The notes under the pieces were generated by a model. It saw only the letters and a program-made list of their open reading frames with translations, made no database searches and was not told the DNA's origin. 6,653 bases of DNA from a virus (Duplodnaviria; Heunggongvirae; Uroviricota; Caudoviricetes), in IMG/VR virus record IMGVR_UViG_2541047174_000021; one strand, given 5' to 3'. Numbering within the stretch: position 1 is the stretch's first letter; each line of letters opens with the position of its first letter. The position numbers and the translations under genes were made by a program. Positions 1-6,653 of the stretch are shown here, piece by piece.

Positions 1-13
1 CGTTGGTTAGCTA

Positions 14-232
14 TTAACGTGGGTATGTAATCATTCTGGCAATGCTTAATGCCGCTGCTTTTTCCAGATTGGTGATATCCTGCTCCAGAGCGGACAGATT
101 TTCAGCCTGCTTAGCCCTGGCTTCATTGGCCCATTTCAGATCCTGCGCTGCCTTAATTTTCTGGTGCATCCACTCATAAAGTTCATCATCGGTATAGTCT
201 GGCGCGATGATGACGGGGTCTCGTTTCTGCAT
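14..232 (-). CDS. Small prophage early-left-operon protein, 72 aa, probably coiled-coil (YdfC-like by size and position)
   Basis: ATG at 232 is preceded on the minus strand by AAGGAG about 6 nt upstream (plus 238-243, ctcctt). Same strand as and downstream of the dicA-like gene, as ydfA-ydfB-ydfC follow dicA in K-12 Qin; K-12 YdfC is also 72 aa (recalled, not aligned). Charged, heptad-like sequence. Confidence 0.6.
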   Translation of the reverse strand: MQKRDPVIIAPDYTDDELYEWMHQKIKAAQDLKWANEARAKQAENLSALEQDITNLEKAAALSIARMITYPR

Positions 233-304
233 GTCGGCTCCTTGTGGTTAGCGTTGCCTGCTTTTTAACCACGTCAGGCGAGGTGGTATCCTCTGAGGGG
301 TCTG

Positions 305-604
305 TTACTCGAGAGGAAATTGGTTATGAATACAATCAAGTTTTCTTGCCCAGAATGTGGTGGCTAAGTCTTTGACACATCCTTTAAGCCGCAGGGCTCT
401 GACAGTTTCGCGGGAGCCATCTGCAAAAATTGTGGTCACCTTGTAACTGAAGATGAGTCCTCGCAGTTCGATGACGAAATCGTTGACAATATCTTCGGTG
501 CACTCACCAGAGACTTTCTGAAGTAAAGGCGCATACCGCTTAGTTACCGCTCTGATAACTCTTACCTGTCCGGCAATGGCGCTGATATCAATATAAAGCG
601 CCAT
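305..604 (-). CDS. Hypothetical protein, 99 aa, unknown function, in leftward early operon
   Basis: ORF-track frame. It stays open upstream to a stop at 743-745, but no in-frame ATG/GTG/TTG lies upstream of the ATG at 604. Weak Shine-Dalgarno. Co-oriented between the repressor and the 72-aa gene. No family recognised. Confidence 0.4.
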   Translation of the reverse strand: MALYIDISAIAGQVRVIRAVTKRYAPLLQKVSGECTEDIVNDFVIELRGLIFSYKVTTIFADGSRETVRALRLKGCVKDLATTFWARKLDCIHNQFPLE

Positions 605-739
605 CGCTGTTTCTTTGCTGATCCCTGGACGCCTTCCATTCTGATGTTTGACTCGCCCACTGAGAAATCCTCTGCTTCCCCTTAACGCCGGGTAGCGGAA
701 CTGTTTGCTGAGAACACCGTGCGGTGTCTTGATGAGTAG

Positions 740-800
740 AATTTAGAATAGCCTAAGAGTTATGGTCAAGCTTTTTGTGTAGAAAAACCTAAGCTTCTTG
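740..800 (-). promoter_or_regulatory. Putative promoter with operator-like CTTAGG motifs for the leftward early operon
   Basis: On the minus strand: TTGACC (plus 764-769), an 18-nt spacer, then TAAATT (plus 740-745). Two CTTAGG motifs (plus 752-757 and 788-793) match the motif repeated in the dicA/dicC intergenic region. The minus-strand 13-mer CTTAGGTTTTTCT nearly equals CTTAGGTTTCTCT at 1301-1313. Confidence 0.25.
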
Positions 801-804
801 ATGT

Positions 805-838
805 AAAAAACACAAGTATTTGAAAGTTTGTGCTTTTT
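805..838 (-). terminator. Weak candidate intrinsic terminator downstream of the dicA-like gene
   Basis: Inverted repeat CACAA (811-815) / TTGTG (828-832) with a 12-nt loop. The plus-strand A-run at 805-810 gives a U-tract for the minus-strand transcript. Short stem, so low confidence. Confidence 0.25.
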
Positions 839-867
839 ATTACAGAGAGTTGCGAAAAAAAGGGGGG

Positions 868-1275
868 TTATTTATTTGCGCTTCTTTTGCGAGCTTTGAG
901 TAGTTCTTCAAAAAGTTTGTTGAAATTCTCAACTCGAGCACGCATCTCTGACAACAGAGCCTTTTGCTCTGACTCAGGCAGTGCGTCGAACAGTTGAAGC
1001 AACTCTTTTTGATCTTCTGTCAGATTGACTGGCTGATTATCTGGGATCGGTTCGCCTGGTTGCTTATCTTCATCTCCAAAAAGAAGCCAAGTCGGCGAGC
1101 ACTGAAGCGCCTGGCTCAGTGCGAATAATCTCTTCCCCGCTGGCTGTGTTTCATCTCTTTCCCATTGAGAAATTGTTACGTGAGCCACTTTGACCAGCTT
1201 ACCTAATGCGGCCTGAGACAGTTTTAATTTTTTTCGCCTGTATAAGAGGCGAGCACCGAAGGTTTCGTTTTTCAT
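868..1275 (-). CDS. dicA: DicA-like XRE-family HTH repressor (cI/c2 analogue), 135 aa
   Basis: 135 aa, the same length as E. coli DicA. Helix-turn-helix region (LSQAALGKLVKVAHVTISQWE) plus blocks I recall from DicA (LQCSPTWLLFGDEDKQP; EMRARVENFNKLFEELLKARKR). Divergent from a DicC-like gene. Confidence 0.85.
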   Translation of the reverse strand: MKNETFGARLLYRRKKLKLSQAALGKLVKVAHVTISQWERDETQPAGKRLFALSQALQCSPTWLLFGDEDKQPGEPIPDNQPVNLTEDQKELLQLFDALPESEQKALLSEMRARVENFNKLFEELLKARKRSANK

Positions 1276-1351
1276 ATTAGGTAATTCTAATTTTTCTTGA
1301 CTTAGGTTTCTCTACGATCTAGTTTCCTTAGGAAAATCTAAGGGTTTCGAT
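1276..1351. promoter_or_regulatory. Divergent promoter/operator region between dicA-like and dicC-like genes
   Basis: TTAGG motifs at 1277-1281, 1302-1306, 1327-1331 and inverted CTAAGG at 1338-1343. Inverted repeats ATTAG-N6-CTAAT (1276-1291) and CCTTAG-N6-CTAAGG (1326-1343). For dicC: -35 TTGACT (1297-1302), -10-like TAGTTT (1320-1325), SD AGGG about 7 nt before ATG 1352. For dicA: minus-strand TAGAAT (plus 1283-1288) only 8 nt before the ATG and no SD, suggesting a leaderless mRNA like lambda cI from PRM. Confidence 0.5.
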
Positions 1352-1579
1352 ATGTTGAAAATTGATGCTATAGCGTTTTTTGGCAGCAAAACAAAGCTTG
1401 CCAATGTCGCAGGAGTTAGGCTGGCAAGCGTTGCTGCATGGGGGGAACTGGTTCCTGAAGGTCGCGCGATGCGCCTGCAAGAGGCATCCGGCGGGGAACT
1501 TCAGTACGACCCCAAAGTTTATGACGAATATCGTAAGGCAAAGCGGGCGGGGCGGTTGAACAATGAAAATCACCACTGA
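1352..1579 (+). CDS. dicC: DicC-like Cro-type regulator, 75 aa
   Basis: Size, divergent arrangement with the repressor, and recalled similarity to E. coli DicC (GSKTKLA, VPEGRAMRLQEASGGELQYDPKVYDEYRK). Confidence 0.85.
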   Translation: MLKIDAIAFFGSKTKLANVAGVRLASVAAWGELVPEGRAMRLQEASGGELQYDPKVYDEYRKAKRAGRLNNENHH

Positions 1580-2114
1580 ACAGGTTTGTGAGGCTCTGGA
1601 TACCTGGGTATGCCGACCAGGAATGACACAGGAGCAGGCGACGATATTAATCACGGAAGCATTCTGGGCTCTGAAAGAACGCCCGAACATCGATGTTCAA
1701 CGCGTCACGTTTAATGATGGCGAGGTTGATCAACGGGCGCTGGGCGTTAACCGGGTGAAGATATTCGAACGCTGGAAAGCTATCGACACCAGAGATAAGC
1801 GTGACAAATTCACGGCGCTGATTCCGGCAATTATGGAGGCTATCCGGATCAGCGATTTCAGATTGTATTGTGAAATTACTGACGGAAAAAGCATTACGTA
1901 CATGATCGCCGGGTTAAACAAAGAATATGGCGATGTGGTGGAGTCCGGGCTGCTTTTTGCGGATCCAGTTGTTGTGGAACGTGAGACTGACGAGCTTATA
2001 GAAAAAGCTATTGCTTTCAAGCACGCGTATCGTCAGCAATACCAATATTACTTTGCAGATAAACAAATGTCTGCCAGGGGGGCGTATGAGTATCGATGCA
2101 CTACGATGGGCTAA
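1563..2114 (+). CDS. Prophage early protein at the cII position, 183 aa (possibly YdaT-family regulator)
   Basis: Immediately follows the Cro-like gene; its ATG overlaps the dicC 3' end by 17 nt and its 3' end overlaps the next gene's start. The YdaT-family assignment is a weak recollection (IPAI-containing segment), not verified. Confidence 0.55.
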   Translation: MKITTEQVCEALDTWVCRPGMTQEQATILITEAFWALKERPNIDVQRVTFNDGEVDQRALGVNRVKIFERWKAIDTRDKRDKFTALIPAIMEAIRISDFRLYCEITDGKSITYMIAGLNKEYGDVVESGLLFADPVVVERETDELIEKAIAFKHAYRQQYQYYFADKQMSARGAYEYRCTTMG

Positions 2115-3126
2115 AAAGGTGAAAACCGGCAGTTCATCCAGTAAGTCAGTATTGACCTGGCTTGCTGATATGTGCGGTGCCGATTTGTGTGCATACCCGT
2201 CTGTATCTGCACTGGCAGAAGTAACGGAACTGAACAAAAAGACTGTGCAGGACAGCTTACGACACCTGATGGAGATTGGGTTAATTGTTGATACCGGTGA
2301 GAGAAAAGGCAGAACAAAGCAAATTGTGGTGTACCGACTTATCGGTGTAGAAGAAAGTGTTGCCGAGCCTGAATACACCCAAAAACGGGAGTCTTTAAAG
2401 GTGGGTAAAATTGGTGCTGTTAATAAAAACAGTACCGAAAATGGTTATGTTTCAGCACAAAACAGACCCAAAAACAGAACTCTTAGCTGCATGGAAAATA
2501 ACCAAAGACACCCAAATTTTCCATCAAAGACACCCAAAAACGGATCACGGAACCCAAAGGAACCCAAAGATCTAAACCCCACACATAACGCACGCGAGAG
2601 TGCTCCGACCAGTGAGCAGGAAGTTTTGTCGTTACAGGCAGCCCCCCCTGTATTCCTGTATGGCCTGAGCGAACCCATCGGAAAATTCCCGATGAGCGAT
2701 AGCTGGTATCCGTCACGGGATTTTCGACGACGGGCTGCGTTGTGGGGGATGGCTTTGCCGGAGACAGAATTTACACCTGCTGAACTTGCCGCCTTCCGGG
2801 ACTACTGGGCAGCGGAGGGGAAAGTGTTTACGCAGATTCAGTGGGAGCAGAAATTCGCCCGTCACGTAAATCACGTCAGGGCGCAGGTTAAACCAGTCAG
2901 CAAAGGGGTAAACCATGCAGCAGCACCAGGTGGCACCGCATCACGGGCAGTTCAGGAAATTCGGGCAGCACGTGAGCAGTGGGAACGTGAAAACGGATTT
3001 ATCAGCGACGGAAACGGCCTGGAAGCTGTGGGAACTCATGGGGGTGGTTTATTCGAACCGCTGGATCCAGAAGAACGGGGCCGCACCTTCGAAGCTCTGG
3101 ATTGCACAGATTGGCGCGATGACTGA
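2086..3126 (+). CDS. Phage replication initiator / replisome organiser (lambda O-like role): N-terminal HTH, iteron-encoded linker, C-terminal DnaT-like domain
   Basis: The track ORF 2011-3126 starts at a TTG; I prefer ATG 2086 (MSIDALRWAKK), which has a G-rich SD (2074-2081). C-terminal segment GKFPMSDSWYPSRDFRRRAALWGMALPETEFTPAELAAFRDYWAAEGKVFTQIQWEQKFARH resembles the E. coli DnaT C-terminal domain (recalled). Low-complexity Pro/Lys/Asn linker is encoded by the repeat array. Confidence 0.8.
   Translation: MSIDALRWAKKVKTGSSSSKSVLTWLADMCGADLCAYPSVSALAEVTELNKKTVQDSLRHLMEIGLIVDTGERKGRTKQIVVYRLIGVEESVAEPEYTQKRESLKVGKIGAVNKNSTENGYVSAQNRPKNRTLSCMENNQRHPNFPSKTPKNGSRNPKEPKDLNPTHNARESAPTSEQEVLSLQAAPPVFLYGLSEPIGKFPMSDSWYPSRDFRRRAALWGMALPETEFTPAELAAFRDYWAAEGKVFTQIQWEQKFARHVNHVRAQVKPVSKGVNHAAAPGGTASRAVQEIRAAREQWERENGFISDGNGLEAVGTHGGGLFEPLDPEERGRTFEALDCTDWRDD
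2375..2570. repeat. Iteron-like direct repeats (candidate phage origin of replication) inside the initiator gene
   Basis: Exact 14-mer CAAAGACACCCAAA at 2503-2516 and 2525-2538 (22-bp spacing). Related copies ACACCCAAAAACGG 2375-2388, AGACCCAAAAACAG 2464-2477, AACCCAAAGG 2551-2560, AACCCAAAGA 2561-2570. An AT-rich stretch lies within the array at about 2401-2462. Confidence 0.45.
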
Positions 3127-3580
3127 GCAGCAAATCCGGCAGGTCTGCCGCCAGTGCATGGACCGCTGCCGGGCGGGTGAAACATGGCCTCCGGACCTGG
3201 CTGAGTTTGTGGCACTGATTTCGAAAAGCGGAGCCAATCCATTCGGTCTGACGGTGGATGCTGTGATGGAGGAGTACCGCCGCTGGCGCAATGAGTCCTG
3301 GCGATACGACGGAAGTGATAAGTACCCGTGGTCTCAGCCTGTGCTGTATCACATTTGCCTCGAGATGCGTTCAAAGGGGATTGAGCGCCAGATGACCGAA
3401 GGGGAATTAAAACGGCTTGCAGAACGGCAACTGACGAAATGGGCAAAGCATGTTAGTAACGGCCTGAGCGTTCCGCCAGTCCGGCGACAACTGGCGGCCC
3501 CCAAACGCCCGTCGGGGCCAACGCCAATTGAGTTGCTGAAACAGGAATATGAACGCCGGAAAGCGGCTGGTTTTGTTTGA
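2915..3580 (+). CDS. Lambda P-like replication protein (helicase loader), 221 aa from ATG 2915
   Basis: C-terminal half resembles lambda P (recalled), e.g. YPWSQPVLYHICLEMRSKG...LTEGELKRLAERQLTKWAKHV versus lambda YPWKSNAHYWLVTNLYQNMR...LTDAELRRKAADELVHMTARI. Best SD (AGGGG 2901-2905) precedes ATG 2915; alternative starts are ATG 3038 and ATG 3119. Start uncertain. Confidence 0.75.
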   Translation: MQQHQVAPHHGQFRKFGQHVSSGNVKTDLSATETAWKLWELMGVVYSNRWIQKNGAAPSKLWIAQIGAMTEQQIRQVCRQCMDRCRAGETWPPDLAEFVALISKSGANPFGLTVDAVMEEYRRWRNESWRYDGSDKYPWSQPVLYHICLEMRSKGIERQMTEGELKRLAERQLTKWAKHVSNGLSVPPVRRQLAAPKRPSGPTPIELLKQEYERRKAAGFV

Positions 3581-3613
3581 GTTGAGAAGTGATTTTTTAC
3601 CGGGAGGAAATTT

Positions 3614-4348
3614 ATGGAGACTGTTTTTGACGCACTGAAAGCGATGGGAAAAGCCACGTCGGTATAGCTGGCTGCGCGACTTGATATCAGTCGTGAAGAA
3701 GTACTGAACGAGCTGTGGGAACTGAAAAAGGCTGGCTTCGTTGATAAAAGCGTATACACCTGGCGTGTGGCTGATAACAACGTTCAGCAGGAACAGCCAG
3801 CGCCAGAAGAAACCACCACGGCAACAGAAGCGAAAATCTCAGAGTGCGATTTAACCGCGACGATTGAACAACGCGGACCACAAACGGCGGATGAACTGGC
3901 TACGCTGTTCGGTACAACATCCCGCAAAGTTGCTTCAACGCTGGCAATGGCAATCAGCAAAGGTCGTCTGATTCGCGTAAACCAGAACGGTAAAATTCGT
4001 TACTGCATACCAGGTGATAATTTACCAGCAGAGCCGAAAGTTGAATCGGTAGCGGAAACCGATGGTAAAGCCTTTCCTCAGCCAGCCGGTGTTGCGTTAC
4101 CGGTACAGAAAGATGCAACACAGGAAGATATTAAAACAGAAACTGTGGCGGACATTGTGCAGTCGCTGCCATCGTTTACTGCAACGCGAGAAGATGATTT
4201 GATTTTGCCATCGCTGCATATGGCAAATCGCGAACTGCGTAGGGCGAAGAATCATGTCCAGAAGTGGGAGCGAGTCTGCGCCGCGCTGCGGGAGCTGAAC
4301 AAGCACCGGGATATGGTTGCCGGGATTTGTCGGAAGTCCGGGCAATGA
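3614..4348 (+). pseudogene. Tandem winged-helix (HTH) phage protein, 244 codons, interrupted by an in-frame amber codon at 3665-3667 (Ren position after P)
   Basis: Strong SD GGAGG (3603-3607) before ATG 3614. Frame reads [48 protein letters not shown] and runs without further stops to TGA 4346-4348. The TAG sits where HTH motifs usually have Gln/Glu. The track ORF 3767-4348 is the same frame restarting at a GTG. A second HTH-like segment is [33 protein letters not shown]. Confidence 0.6.
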
Positions 4349-4509
4349 GCGGATGGTGCAGGCCTGAAATCATGATACTAACAATGAAGGTAAAATGCAT
4401 CGGCAGTCTGATTGGTCGTAGTGAGGCGGCGGTCAGGATGAAAGCCCAGGTTAAGGGAATAAGCCTGATTCTGCGGGGTGATTTTCACCAGTCAACAAAA
4501 TATCCGTAG
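4345..4509 (+). CDS. Short ORF (54 aa) translationally coupled to the preceding gene; possibly the disrupted 5' part of the following remnant
   Basis: Its ATG (4345-4347) overlaps the upstream TGA (4346-4348) in an ATGA arrangement. No recognisable family; product [24 protein letters not shown]... Confidence 0.25.
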
Positions 4510-4956
4510 CGCGATAACGGTCAAAAATTATGGCGCTGACACTTTTGTGCCACTGGAGATGACTGTACCTAAGTTCAGGGGAGAAGAACACGTCCGGTGG
4601 GATGGTCGGGCCAGATTTAAAGGGCAGGTCATGGCTCCAGCCTGTACGCTGGCAATGGAGGCTGCCTGGCGGGAAATTGATATGGGAACCACGCCACTCA
4701 GGGATTTACTGCCGGTCCAGAGAATAAATTCCTGTTACGGTTACACCACTGTGATCTTGCAAGTGCAGGAAAGTAGGTCTACACGGTAACGCGAGTGCGT
4801 GTAACTTTTGATGTCATTCCCGTAGAAACACCGGACAAATTTTCGCTGACAGGTCATGCAGAAGGTATAAATCTGCAGATTATGGACAATTACGGATATC
4901 CGGCAAGAGCCGGAAAAAGCATGCCGCCTCTAATTCTCAGTGGAAGATGGACTTGA
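4478..4956 (+). pseudogene. Fimbrial (chaperone-usher pilin) subunit-like remnant, frameshifted and 3'-truncated
   Basis: Frame 2 (4478-4789) has GRARFKGQVMAPACTLAMEAAWREIDMGTTPLRDL, matching the pilin N-terminal pattern F-x-G-x-V-x3-C...L-G-x-V (compare FimA GTVHFKGEVVNAACAV...VQLGQV, recalled), with a second Cys about 30 residues on. Frame 1 (4777-4956) continues with VTFDVIPVETPDKFSLTGHAEGINLQIMDNYG, like FimA GVQILDRTG. No in-frame signal peptide, at least one frameshift near 4775-4790, and it ends at the AT-rich boundary. Confidence 0.35.
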
Positions 4957-5015
4957 TTATACTCATTGCATTGTCAGAAATAGTTATCCATTAAAGGCTG
5001 GCTATTCCAAACAGG

Positions 5016-5043
5016 ATGTTGATTACAAAAATGTAATCAACAT
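5016..5043. promoter_or_regulatory. Perfect inverted repeat (12-bp arms, 4-bp spacer) upstream of the binding-protein gene; candidate operator
   Basis: ATGTTGATTACA (5016-5027), AAAA, TGTAATCAACAT (5032-5043), arms exactly reverse-complementary. Sits in the AT-rich region about 165 bp before ATG 5208. A perfect TATAAT is at 5070-5075. Confidence 0.3.
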
Positions 5044-5207
5044 GTAAGGTTTATACTCTTCAATATGCGTATAATTTTCCTTATTTTGTTGACTTTAAAT
5101 AACAAGCTATGCACGAGGTAAAGTCGGATAAGTTTATCTGGATGTAATATATATTATTTGTAGTGTTTATAACTTTATTTCATGATAACCAATAAAAGGA
5201 GTTTTTT

Positions 5208-5966
5208 ATGAGGAACATAATGGCAGGTTTTTTAATATTCCTGTCTTCTGCTGCTTATGCTGATATCAATCTGTATGGTCCTGGTGGCCCGCATACAGCC
5301 TTGCTTGATGCAGCCAAACTTTATGCCGAAAAAACAGGTATTATAGTGAACGTTCATTACGGCCCACAGAACAAATGGAATGAAGATGCCAAAAAAAATG
5401 CAGATATCTTGTTTGGCGCATCAGAACAATCTGCTCTGGCTATCATTCGGGACCATAAAGACAGCTTCAGTGAAAAAGATATTCAGCCTCTTTATCTGCG
5501 AAAAAGTATTTTACTGGTAAAGAAAGGTAATCCTAAAAATATCCGGAGTATTGACGACCTGACCAGACCTGGGATTGGCGTAATTGTTAATGATGGTGGT
5601 GGTACCAGTAATACATCAGGCACTGGCGTCTGGGAAGATATTGCCGGACGTAAAGGGAATATAGAAACTGTCGCCGCAATCCGAAAAAATATTATTTTAT
5701 ATGCGCCCAATAGCGGAACTGCACGTAAGGCTCTTGAGAATCAGCCTGGAGCAGATGTCTGGATAACCTGGGCTGACTGGGCAGCCAGTAATCCAGAAAT
5801 TGGTGATGTCGTGGAAATAGCGCCAGACTACGTGATATGGCGTGATATGAACATTACAGTACGTCAGGATGCAAATGATGAAACCCGTCGATTTGCAGAA
5901 TGGCTACAAACCGATGAAGCGGCGCCTGCATTCAAAAAATATGGCTGGACCAGGAAAGGCACTTGA
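5208..5966 (+). CDS. Secreted periplasmic substrate-binding protein, ModA-like (molybdate/tungstate-type fold), 252 aa, orphan
   Basis: SD AAGGAG (5195-5200) 7 nt before the ATG. Signal peptide MRNIMAGFLIFLSSAAYA, then DINLYG. Architecture parallels E. coli ModA (recalled): ADILFGASEQ versus ADLFISADQ, C-terminus AAPAFKKYGWT versus AAEIFKRYGFT. AT-rich codon usage unlike the phage module. No permease or ATPase gene nearby. Confidence 0.75.
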   Translation: MRNIMAGFLIFLSSAAYADINLYGPGGPHTALLDAAKLYAEKTGIIVNVHYGPQNKWNEDAKKNADILFGASEQSALAIIRDHKDSFSEKDIQPLYLRKSILLVKKGNPKNIRSIDDLTRPGIGVIVNDGGGTSNTSGTGVWEDIAGRKGNIETVAAIRKNIILYAPNSGTARKALENQPGADVWITWADWAASNPEIGDVVEIAPDYVIWRDMNITVRQDANDETRRFAEWLQTDEAAPAFKKYGWTRKGT

Positions 5967-5970
5967 CATC

Positions 5971-5998
5971 CTCGTCCTTCAGGACGTGGATTCTTTTT
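5971..5998 (+). terminator. Candidate intrinsic terminator after the binding-protein gene
   Basis: Imperfect hairpin CTCGTCC-TTCA-GGACGTG (5971-5988) followed by a T-rich tract, TTCTTTTT (5991-5998). Confidence 0.3.
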
Positions 5999-6085
5999 CC
6001 GGATGCCGCGCCAGCGGCATGTAGGGGCAGCTCACAAAACGGAAAAAATTGTACGCTAAGCCTCGCCAGGTGAACTGAATTCATT

Positions 6086-6109
6086 CCGATATGGGAATTC
6101 CCATATCGG
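6086..6109. repeat. Perfect 24-bp palindrome centred on GAATTC, upstream of the hok promoter region
   Basis: CCGATATGGGAATTCCCATATCGG equals its own reverse complement. A second GAATTC lies at 6077-6082. Confidence 0.6.
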
Positions 6110-6179
6110 GCGAAAACGGTTTGCTGTAACGGCAGAGTTAAGTAGGATTGCTGCGGGTGCTTGAGGCTATCTGCCTCGG

Positions 6180-6255
6180 GCATGAACACCAACGGCAGAT
6201 AGATAAAAGCCCCACCCGACTATAAATCGAAGTGAGGCCCCTATATGCTCGTCAC
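6180..6255 (-). ncRNA. sok: Putative Sok-like antisense RNA (approximate bounds)
   Basis: By analogy with hok/sok loci, the antisense RNA covers the mok SD/start (SD GAGG 6233-6236, ATG 6245). A minus-strand TTGACC -35 candidate is at plus 6283-6288; I found no convincing -10. Ends not determinable from sequence. Confidence 0.3.
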
Positions 6256-6457
6256 ATATAGATTGCCTCTTACGGACCGAAAGGTCAAGGAGAAGCAGGC
6301 TATGAAGCAGCAAAAGGCGATGTTAATCGCCCTGATCGTCATCTGTTTAATCGTCATAGTGACGGCACTGGTAACGAGGAAAGACCTCTGCGAGGTACGA
6401 ATCCGAACCGGCCAGACGGAGGTCGCTGTCTTCACAGCTTACGAACCTGAGGAGTAA
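6245..6457 (+). CDS. mok: mok-like reading frame (in-frame upstream extension overlapping hok), 70 aa
   Basis: ATG 6245 with SD GAGG (6233-6236). Reads MLVTYRLPLTDRKVKEKQA then the Hok sequence, the same layout I recall for chromosomal MokC/MokB. The region from about 6153 closely parallels the plasmid R1 hok mRNA leader (recalled). Confidence 0.5.
   Translation: MLVTYRLPLTDRKVKEKQAMKQQKAMLIALIVICLIVIVTALVTRKDLCEVRIRTGQTEVAVFTAYEPEE
6302..6457 (+). CDS. hokD: Hok-family type I toxin (HokD/RelF-like), 51 aa membrane peptide
   Basis: MKQQKAMLIALIVICLIVIVTALVTRKDLCEVRIRTGQTEVAVFTAYEPEE: Hok family signature, near-identical to my recollection of E. coli K-12 HokD (RelF). SD AAGGAG (6287-6292). 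Confidence 0.9.
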   Translation: MKQQKAMLIALIVICLIVIVTALVTRKDLCEVRIRTGQTEVAVFTAYEPEE

Positions 6458-6525
6458 GAGACCAGGCGGGGGAGAAATCCCTCGCCACCTCTGATGTGTC
6501 AGGCATCCTCAACGCACCCGCACTT

Positions 6526-6552
6526 AACCCGCTTCGGCGGGTTTTGTTTTTT
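6526..6552 (+). terminator. Rho-independent terminator of the hok transcript
   Basis: Stem AACCCGC (6526-6532), UUCG tetraloop (6533-6536), GCGGGTT (6537-6543), then TTGTTTTTT. Confidence 0.7.
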
Positions 6553-6653
6553 CTGGTCGTTCTGGTTTACAATCCATCCGTCAGCCTGAACAACTGGCAC
6601 CTGCTGCGCCAGCAGAGAAAACAGATGGCGCACGATACCAAATTTTACAATTC

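Follow-up and report, generated by a model that had tools for sequence, protein, structure and literature searches.

A conserved candidate operator in the AT-rich region upstream of the prophage gene paa of Escherichia coli O157:H7

The prophage locus and its mosaic cargo

The DNA analyzed here, referred to below as the window, is a stretch of 6,653 nucleotides from the IMG/VR virus record IMGVR_UViG_2541047174_000021. It was 99.9% identical to E. coli O157:H7 chromosomes and represents the lambdoid prophage at the ompW site, OI-57/CP-933O, which is named PPompW in GenBank phage records. In these chromosomes, the genes follow each other as repressor/Cro, YdaT, the DnaT-like and P replication genes, a DUF1627 gene, a short hypothetical gene, a frameshifted “fimbrial protein” pseudogene (4514-5047 of the window), paa (5208-5966) and hokD. 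The gene paa/adfO is a widely used virulence marker for EHEC, EPEC, and ETEC. Its product, a periplasmic solute-binding-type “AcfC family adhesin” encoded on the forward strand (RefSeq WP_001449026.1), matched the Pfam family SBP_bac_11 with an E-value of 5.5e-34. OI-57 was previously reported to carry adfO (z2053), the homologue of paa, next to the hok-type gene ckf (PMC8565820), and the 99.9% identity, the position of paa and the downstream hokD (ckf) identify the locus as the same one. The gene and the prophage that carries it are already well known, and so is the distribution of the gene. The OI-57 literature describes the gene and where it occurs, whereas the fusion to a fimbrial fragment, the end points of the module and the conserved upstream element described below were not found in the searchable papers.

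The GC content was 0.279 in 4957-5207 and 0.269 in 5007-5207, compared to 0.494 in 1-4513 and 0.512 in 6027-6653. The sharp shift to AT-rich DNA that had been predicted for 4957-5207 was therefore borne out by the windowed GC analysis (27-28%). The biggest drop in GC between left and right 200-bp windows was a tie between 4956 and 5019, and the GC content recovered at about 5240. The AT-richness was also expected to extend through the next gene, and this part was true only in a mild form. The paa coding sequence has a GC content of 0.439 and a GC3 of 0.35, compared to 0.47-0.61 in the adjacent phage genes, which confines the trough to the noncoding 250 bp. Such AT-richness is normal for a foreign promoter and leader. 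Since about 27% GC is typical of foreign DNA bound by H-NS, silencing of the putative paa control region by H-NS is likely by analogy.

The composition was expected to change from phage-like to AT-rich DNA near 4957, but the DNA to the left of this position proved to be cargo as well. The similarity to the related prophage RM13752 stopped after 4516, and this end of the phage backbone (4345-4516, forward strand) includes a hypothetical-protein gene at 4345-4509, a homologue of a prophage “DNA-binding protein” gene. Its intact homologue in RM13752 is 255 bp long, so the copy in the window is truncated. The RM13752 prophage has wholly different genes ahead of its hok locus. The segment 4542-5006 (forward strand), which was 85.6% identical to positions 4993-5472 of L004, is a dead piece from the interior of a fimbrial subunit gene of the chaperone-usher type. 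In L004, the gene (4923-5510; Pfam Fimbrial) encodes the second subunit in an intact chaperone-usher operon that includes a PapB-type regulator. Compared with this gene, the fragment is missing 70 nt at the start and 38 nt at the end, and 10 and 5 bp are deleted internally. From these alignments, the boundary between phage and cargo is placed near 4517-4541, where the backbone stops, and not at 4957.

The fimbrial fragment was fused to the paa module at about 5004-5007: the fimbrial similarity ended at 5006, and the similarity to paa-like sequences of plasmids began between 5004 and 5022. The first 50 bp of the AT-rich region (4957-5006) are thus the last 50 bp of the decayed fimbrial fragment. 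PGAP annotates the fimbrial pseudogene at 4514-5047. Read against the fusion point, the end at 5047 is an artefact, being the first in-frame stop past the fusion and lying inside the putative paa control region. The junction map corrects this annotation.

The paa module (about 5004-6026) matched paa-like modules of plasmids with 86-89% identity overall and 72-81% in the upstream 200 bp. The plasmid genes are annotated as “substrate-binding domain-containing protein” and were found in E. coli, E. albertii, E. marmotae, Shigella, and Salmonella. In total, 190 plasmid records matched some part of 4400-6100, either the fimbrial or the paa part (blastn), and the Paa protein was matched in 109 plasmid records (tblastn). 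At its right side, paa is followed by a terminator-like hairpin and a T-run at 5973-5998 (forward strand; terminator scan), and then by a second hairpin, ATGCCGC gcca GCGGCAT, with its stem at 6004-6021. This second hairpin and the right end of the module (6004-6026, forward strand) were kept in the plasmid homologues, and the similarity to plasmids ended after CATGTAGGGG, at about 6026. Related prophages (L251, L254, L259, and L261) aligned again from exactly 6086. The original prediction of horizontally acquired cargo is supported, as paa/adfO is a known accessory gene of O157 prophages (PMC8565820) and the module was present in many unrelated plasmid contexts.

A chimeric query made of the two flanks was searched against 5426 complete E. 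coli genomes, and no record covered both flanks, so an empty-site prophage was not found. As a result, the end points of the insertion were not readable from a comparison of prophages, and the plasmid paralogues, the intact fimbrial operon and RM13752 were used instead. The proposal to define the end points by alignment was thus realized with the plasmid paralogues and the intact fimbrial operon, but not with related prophages. In 573 genomes, a single aligned place covered at least 80% of the 4400-6100 query (563 records at 99% identity or more), and the surroundings of the junction were identical in 44 copies of the palindrome region among the loci from the viral collection. The original prediction had counted the same junction in all related prophages, without variation, as an argument against itself, and the junction was indeed essentially invariant in these 573 genomes and 44 viral copies, with no empty site. 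The junction map shows that two or more unrelated pieces had already been joined in this cargo when it spread with the prophage. The general picture of prophage cargo genes is unchanged by these results.

The palindrome and the conserved element

The inverted repeat with 12-bp arms predicted at 5016-5043 was found to be perfect: the arms ATGTTGATTACA (5016-5027) and TGTAATCAACAT (5032-5043) are 100% complementary and are separated by the 4-bp spacer AAAA. Since inverted repeats arise more often in AT-rich sequence of low complexity, a chance feature was considered. When the whole window was shuffled 2000 times with a first-order Markov model, perfect arms of 12 bp or longer around a loop of 10 or shorter arose in 14 of the shuffles, and in only 5 of 5000 composition-matched local shuffles of 4957-5207. 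The core pattern ATTACANNNNTGTAAT, with at most one mismatch, had one match in the window compared to none in 200 shuffles. The 19-mer ATTRCAAAAATGTAATCAA gave 94 matches in species-representative genomes, a number that would speak for chance. All of them were in unrelated AT-rich taxa and none was beside a paa-like gene, which indicates that those matches are themselves chance occurrences. Among viral contigs, a paa-like gene was present at 42 of the 60 loci matched by the 19-mer (tblastn). As the core is also conserved in diverged homologues, it is extremely improbable that the palindrome arose by chance alone.

The core, ATTACA-AAAA-TGTAAT (5022-5037), was present in 16 of 16 distinct upstream regions of the paa family. 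These sequences comprised nine independent plasmid contexts, three more distant plasmid homologues (L166-L168) and metagenomic relatives including L183 and L190. After CA and three variable bases, the core is followed by a second conserved block, TGTAAGGTTTAT (5043-5054, forward strand), with the consensus tGTaAGgTTTAT, or (T/C)GT(A/C)AG(G/C)TT(T)AT, at a fixed spacing in the 16 sequences. The element can be described as three hexamers, with an inverted pair ATTACA-N4-TGTAAT and a direct repeat TGTAAT-N5-YGTAAG with an 11-bp period. The consensus of the whole footprint over the 16 distinct upstream sequences was ATTACAAAAATGTAATCA..tGTaAGgTTTAT followed by TATaAT. The variable positions lay in the spacers, and variable spacers between conserved positions are the usual pattern of a protein site. 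The core of the palindrome is thus a conserved element that probably binds a protein, judging by this pattern.

Relatedness is fairly close for most of the 16 sequences (72-81% identity upstream), so part of the conservation reflects shared ancestry. The strongest support for conservation comes from the five diverged sequences L166, L167/L168, L183, and L190. Their Paa proteins were 88% (L166, the Salmonella plasmid pSalMiami), 86% (L167/L168), 86% (L183), and 69% (L190) identical at the amino acid level, and the core was kept in all of them although the flanks failed to align. L166-L168 were missed by blastn with a 218-nt upstream query, which indicates that the element outlasts the alignability of the surrounding DNA. 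The element was absent in two homologues, L169 and L170 (74-81% amino acid identity), and in one of them a Tn3-type fragment stands in place of the upstream region. The 43-nt composite element was present in 576 E. coli records at 99% identity or more. At the sensitivity of BLAST, every copy detected in the 5426 E. coli genomes was linked to paa and the median number of places per genome was one, so that no regulon is in evidence at this sensitivity.

The palindrome was unchanged in the 44 copies of the region from the viral collection, and throughout the prophage lineage all 12 bp of its stem pair perfectly without variation. It could act as a nucleic-acid hairpin, in the form of a barrier, a processing site or a stabilizer that insulates paa from transcription of the phage early/replication operon, since the upstream genes are co-oriented. 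The predicted fold is stable on either strand, with -14.3 kcal/mol (z = -3.95; the RNA fold) and -17.1 kcal/mol (z = -4.79). On the other hand, full complementarity of the outer 6 bp of the arms is restricted to the O157 lineage, and L002 and L005 show part of it. In most plasmid homologues, the arms are 6 bp long, too short for a stable stem. This distribution indicates that selection keeps an asymmetric set of hexamers, the right arm with the downstream block, and not the 12-bp stem. There is also no U-tract, and the terminator scan did not list the palindrome, so that a hairpin function appears improbable. An intrinsic terminator in particular was rejected, as the stem has 3 G-C pairs of 12, is followed by GTAAGGTTTATAC with no U-tract and was unlisted by the scan.

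As an alternative to a regulator site, the palindrome had been proposed to be a recombination scar, or it could be a terminal or recognition site of the mobile unit that moved paa. At the left end of the paa module, only about 10 bp precede the palindrome, and in some contexts, such as L010 beside IS21, the similarity begins within the left arm. In addition, 5 bp of the module follow the second hairpin at the right end, and both hairpins share the flanks GGATG...CATGTARGG in the window. However, the junction at about 5004-5007 is outside the repeat, about 10 bp to its left, and the ends of the module differ between contexts, each with different IS elements. No target duplications and no matching terminal repeats were seen, and the GGATG flank is specific to the lineage of the window. 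Furthermore, the core is kept in independent contexts at a fixed distance to the -10 hexamer, which would be unexpected for a scar. These results make a scar or terminal site very improbable. The variation of the module ends and the restriction of the left flank to one lineage also led us to reject a cassette bounded by the two hairpins with their shared flanks. The proposal of a regulator site was supported, since the core is conserved and keeps a constant spacing to a -10 hexamer that is itself conserved.

The predicted promoter and its possible regulation

The hexamer TATAAT at 5070-5075 (forward strand) is the probable -10 hexamer of the paa promoter and was kept in 11 close homologues. 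Its distance from TGTAAT of the core is 32 nt, and 33 nt in L183 and L190. The hexamer is TATGAT in L167/L168/L184 and TATAGT in L166. Both the TATAAT and the TTGACT at 5089-5094 (forward strand) of the original prediction were present, and the consensus promoter scan paired neither of them with a partner hexamer. TTGACT is replaced by TTAAGT, TTAACT, or TTAACG in the homologues. It was classified as a chance -35-like hexamer, since it is unconserved and has no -10 hexamer 16-18 bp downstream. By eye, the hexamers located 16-18 bp upstream of TATAAT match TTGACA at no more than 1 of 6 positions. The second conserved block overlaps the expected -35 position. The Shine-Dalgarno sequence AAGGAG (5196-5201, forward strand) lies 6 nt before the ATG of paa, and ATAAAAGGA was invariant in 9 aligned homologues.

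From this arrangement, we infer the transcription start, the binding of a protein and the direction of regulation as follows. The paa module probably brought its own control region. This would contain a sigma-70 promoter with a good -10 hexamer (5070-5075) and no -35 hexamer, a start near 5082 and a leader of about 125 nt. The -35 hexamer would be replaced by the conserved element ATTACA-N4-TGTAAT-N5-YGTAAG at about -60 to -34, with the core at about -60 to -45. These coordinates assume a -10 hexamer at -12 to -7, which places the third hexamer at -39 to -34. The lack of a -35 hexamer, together with a conserved element in its place, led us to read the promoter as factor-dependent. A chromosomally encoded DNA-binding protein may sit on the element and control the recruitment of RNA polymerase, and the missing -35 hexamer would make an activator more likely than a repressor. 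The dyad would be centered at about -52.5, which differs from the classical positions of class I and class II activators.

The element shows symmetry beyond chance, conservation above that of the surrounding noncoding DNA and a fixed position relative to the predicted promoter, all of which would be expected of an operator. On balance, we consider it rather likely that the AT-rich region 4957-5207 is the upstream control region of the prophage cargo gene paa/adfO. With a similar degree of confidence, the region can be read as the tail of the fimbrial fragment followed by the paa promoter and 5′ leader, with the promoter factor-dependent and equipped with a conserved putative operator. A promoter/operator of this kind is ordinary for a prophage cargo gene.

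The leader and the reading frames of the region were also considered. No Rfam family was found in 4957-5207. The only hits in the window were sok (6155-6304) and a sub-threshold isrK. No conserved RNA structure was detected in the leader (-4.2 kcal/mol, 1 compensatory pair). A leader RNA or riboswitch was thus rejected for lack of an Rfam match and of covariation. The region contains only two small open reading frames, a 35-aa frame that is the read-through tail of the pseudogene and a 25-aa antisense frame without support, and both were discarded.

The element may instead work through general factors, as a UP-element-like contact of the RNA polymerase alpha subunit or as a site of nucleation or bending by H-NS, IHF, or Fis. 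Its position at roughly -60 to -38 is where UP elements lie, it contains an A5 tract, the GC content of the region is 27%, and, by eye, AATCAACATGTAA is similar to the IHF core WATCAANNNNTTR, from which it differs at a single position. However, L166-L168 have AATCAT and L190 has AATTAT in place of the IHF-like core, which is thus not the conserved part, and the match to the UP consensus is weak by eye. The conserved discrete hexamers, with their dyad and direct-repeat geometry and free spacers, are also unlike degenerate A/T-tract sites. An action through general factors is therefore regarded as unlikely, and a specific protein site remains the preferred reading of the element.

The element was then compared with known regulator sites. 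The boxes of response regulators include YTTAAK-N5-YTTAAK for PmrA/BasR, TGTTTA-N5-TGTTTA for PhoP and GTAAA-N5-GTAAA for CpxR. Like boxes of the OmpR/PhoB family, the element has two direct hexamers with an 11-bp period that abut the -35 position of a promoter without a -35 hexamer. In contrast to these boxes, no half-site matches one of their consensus sequences exactly, the period of CpxR is 10 bp, and there is an extra inverted hexamer upstream. The PmrA/BasR type came nearest by eye, and this likeness to the OmpR/PhoB family serves as a lead only. Compared with the half-site YTTAAK, the 6-5-6 geometry and the end at about -34 agree, and both half-sites have G for T at position 2. The third hexamer in L166-L168 is TGTCAG.

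Other regulators were compared by eye with the sequence and its spacing, and none of FNR, CRP, TyrR, LexA, Fur, Fis, IHF, RcsB, PhoB, CpxR, PhoP, RstA, or the LysR type fitted both. In an FNR/CRP-type site (TTGAT-N4-ATCAA), the half-sites are 4 bp (FNR) or 6 bp (CRP) apart. In the window, TTGAT (5019-5023) and ATCAA (5036-5040) are 12 bp apart and the TTGAT half is missing in most homologues, so this type was rejected.

A response regulator is conceivable because of the 11-bp direct repeat that abuts the missing -35 hexamer. We tentatively suggest, with less confidence than for the control region as a whole, that the three-hexamer element could be the operator of a regulator from the core genome of Escherichia and Salmonella, possibly a response regulator. 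If this is true, every paa-family adhesin gene, on prophages or plasmids, would be under one host signal. This would also account for an element that accompanies the gene and is kept unchanged while the remaining upstream DNA decays.

In previous work, the paa gene was induced in the contents of the bovine rumen and rectum relative to M9-glucose (PMC8524897), which fits a regulated promoter. Regulation of paa by Fur was tested and not found (PMC4382993). For the paa promoter, the searchable literature contained no transcription start, protein-binding or expression data, nor either palindrome sequence of the window. The predicted promoter and the compact conserved candidate operator offer a handle for the regulator and the gut signal of paa. 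A related case is acfC of V. cholerae, a ToxT-regulated gene of the TCP island. It encodes a homologous AcfC-family solute-binding protein and is likewise horizontally acquired and associated with colonization (PMC5976639). In contrast, E. coli is without ToxT, and the paa element is a short dyad with a repeat and not a toxbox.

Accessory genes with their own promoter and terminator between phage modules, as in the lambdoid phages HK97 and HK022, are known as morons. The solute-binding protein gene has a function unrelated to phages and sits between the replication genes with DUF1627 and hok/sok, a slot that carries other genes in the related prophage RM13752. By its position between phage modules, its deviant composition and its presence as a unit in other replicons, paa is a moron. 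It also resembles prophage morons in a predicted -10 hexamer of its own, which is conserved at a fixed spacing from the element, and in the terminator-like hairpin at 5973-5998, a sequence prediction. With this hairpin past paa, the module has its own predicted start and stop signals. Unlike a simple moron, the cargo is a composite of a dead fimbrial fragment, the paa module and a further 59 bp, and a prophage with an empty site that shows a plain insertion was not found among the 5426 E. coli genomes.

A second palindrome at the right edge of the cargo slot

The right edge of the variable cargo slot is marked by a perfect 24-bp palindrome, CCGATATGGGAATTCCCATATCGG, at 6086-6109, and 6086 is the exact position from which the related prophages align. 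This palindrome is odder than that at 5016-5043. It recurred exactly in at least 7 unrelated flanking contexts in viral contigs, with GC contents from 27 to 69%. It may be a protein-binding site that recurs, a very small mobile sequence or a piece that spread from the genes named below. In Dhillonvirus coliphages, it is a conserved intergenic site, and in phage KarlBarth it lies exactly between two copies of a 32-nt direct repeat. Within genes, the palindrome reads DMGIPIS in one frame, and this was seen in KilA-N-type “DNA-binding protein” genes, in a RecT-like tail and in a 2380-aa protein. In an enterobacterial family of KilA-N-type genes, the DMGIPIS peptide was conserved and its DNA was the same palindrome with 1-2 mismatches.

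The palindrome at the right edge of the cargo slot

On its right side, the variable cargo slot is bounded by the perfect palindrome CCGATATGGGAATTCCCATATCGG, which occupies 24 bp (6086-6109) with no spacer between its arms, and the alignment of related prophages to the window begins exactly at 6086. An EcoRI site forms its centre, and all reading frames are open across it. As coding sequence for the peptide DMGIPIS, the palindrome occurs within genes of KilA-N type, in a RecT-like tail, and in a 2380-aa protein. In Dhillonvirus coliphages, it is kept as an intergenic site. In one Dhillonvirus locus (L266), it is flanked by two 32-nt direct repeats. Exact copies were found in at least seven unrelated flanking contexts among viral contigs of 27-69% GC. 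No paper containing CCGATATGGGAATTCCCATATCGG was found in the searchable literature.

The paa module and this palindrome are separated by 59 bp (6027-6085), for which no match was found to the plasmid paa flanks or to the related prophages that were examined. A hairpin, ATGCCGC gcca GCGGCAT (6004-6021), lies immediately within the right boundary of the module. In the lineage of the window, this hairpin and the left palindrome of the paa control region (5016-5043) have the immediate flanks GGATG...CATGTARGG in common. In the plasmid homologues, the right hairpin is kept and the flank of the left palindrome is not.

The fimbrial fragment and the truncated phage gene left of the paa module

On the left, the paa module adjoins an internal fragment of a fimbrial subunit gene (4542-5006), which is annotated as a 'fimbrial protein' pseudogene at 4514-5047. 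Both ends of the gene are missing from the fragment, and deletions of 10 bp and 5 bp are present. The subunit gene from which this piece derives belongs to a PapB-regulated chaperone-usher operon. Its annotated 3′ end (5047) lies past the fusion point and inside the paa control region, so that the left palindrome is included. The complete prophage-type composite of fimbrial fragment and paa was also found, with 99-100% identity over 4400-6100, in NZ_CP031350.1 (187 kb) and NZ_CP148543.1 (15.6 kb). Both records were submitted as plasmids and may represent phage-plasmids, integrated prophages, or assembly products.

Further to the left, a short 'hypothetical protein' gene (4345-4509, within the region 4345-4516) corresponds to the 5′ portion of a prophage gene of 255 bp for a 'DNA-binding protein'. 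The 255-bp gene is intact in the prophage of strain RM13752, which carries different genes in the same cargo slot. The truncation dates to the joining of the cargo.

One viral-collection copy, L108, carries a secondary IS1 insertion in the fimbrial fragment. In nucleotides 1-53 of this copy (window 4959/4960), GGTAATGACTCC... (reversed), which we take to be an IS1 end from its terminal repeat, adjoins window position 4960. The original prediction had placed the start of AT-rich DNA near 4957, and the IS1 joint lies a few bases from this coordinate.

RNA elements and a probable further boundary near hokD

To the right of the palindrome, the sok antitoxin RNA was identified by Rfam upstream of hokD (6155-6304, 103.9 bits). 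Downstream of hokD, an isrK-like match (6466-6547) was sub-threshold (27.2 bits; gathering score, 50). The alignment to the window ends at 6551 in most O157 genomes, whereas it continues through 6653 in some viral-collection copies (L112, L114, L125, and L165); this difference points to an additional mosaic boundary at ~6551, with 6552-6653 lying beyond it.
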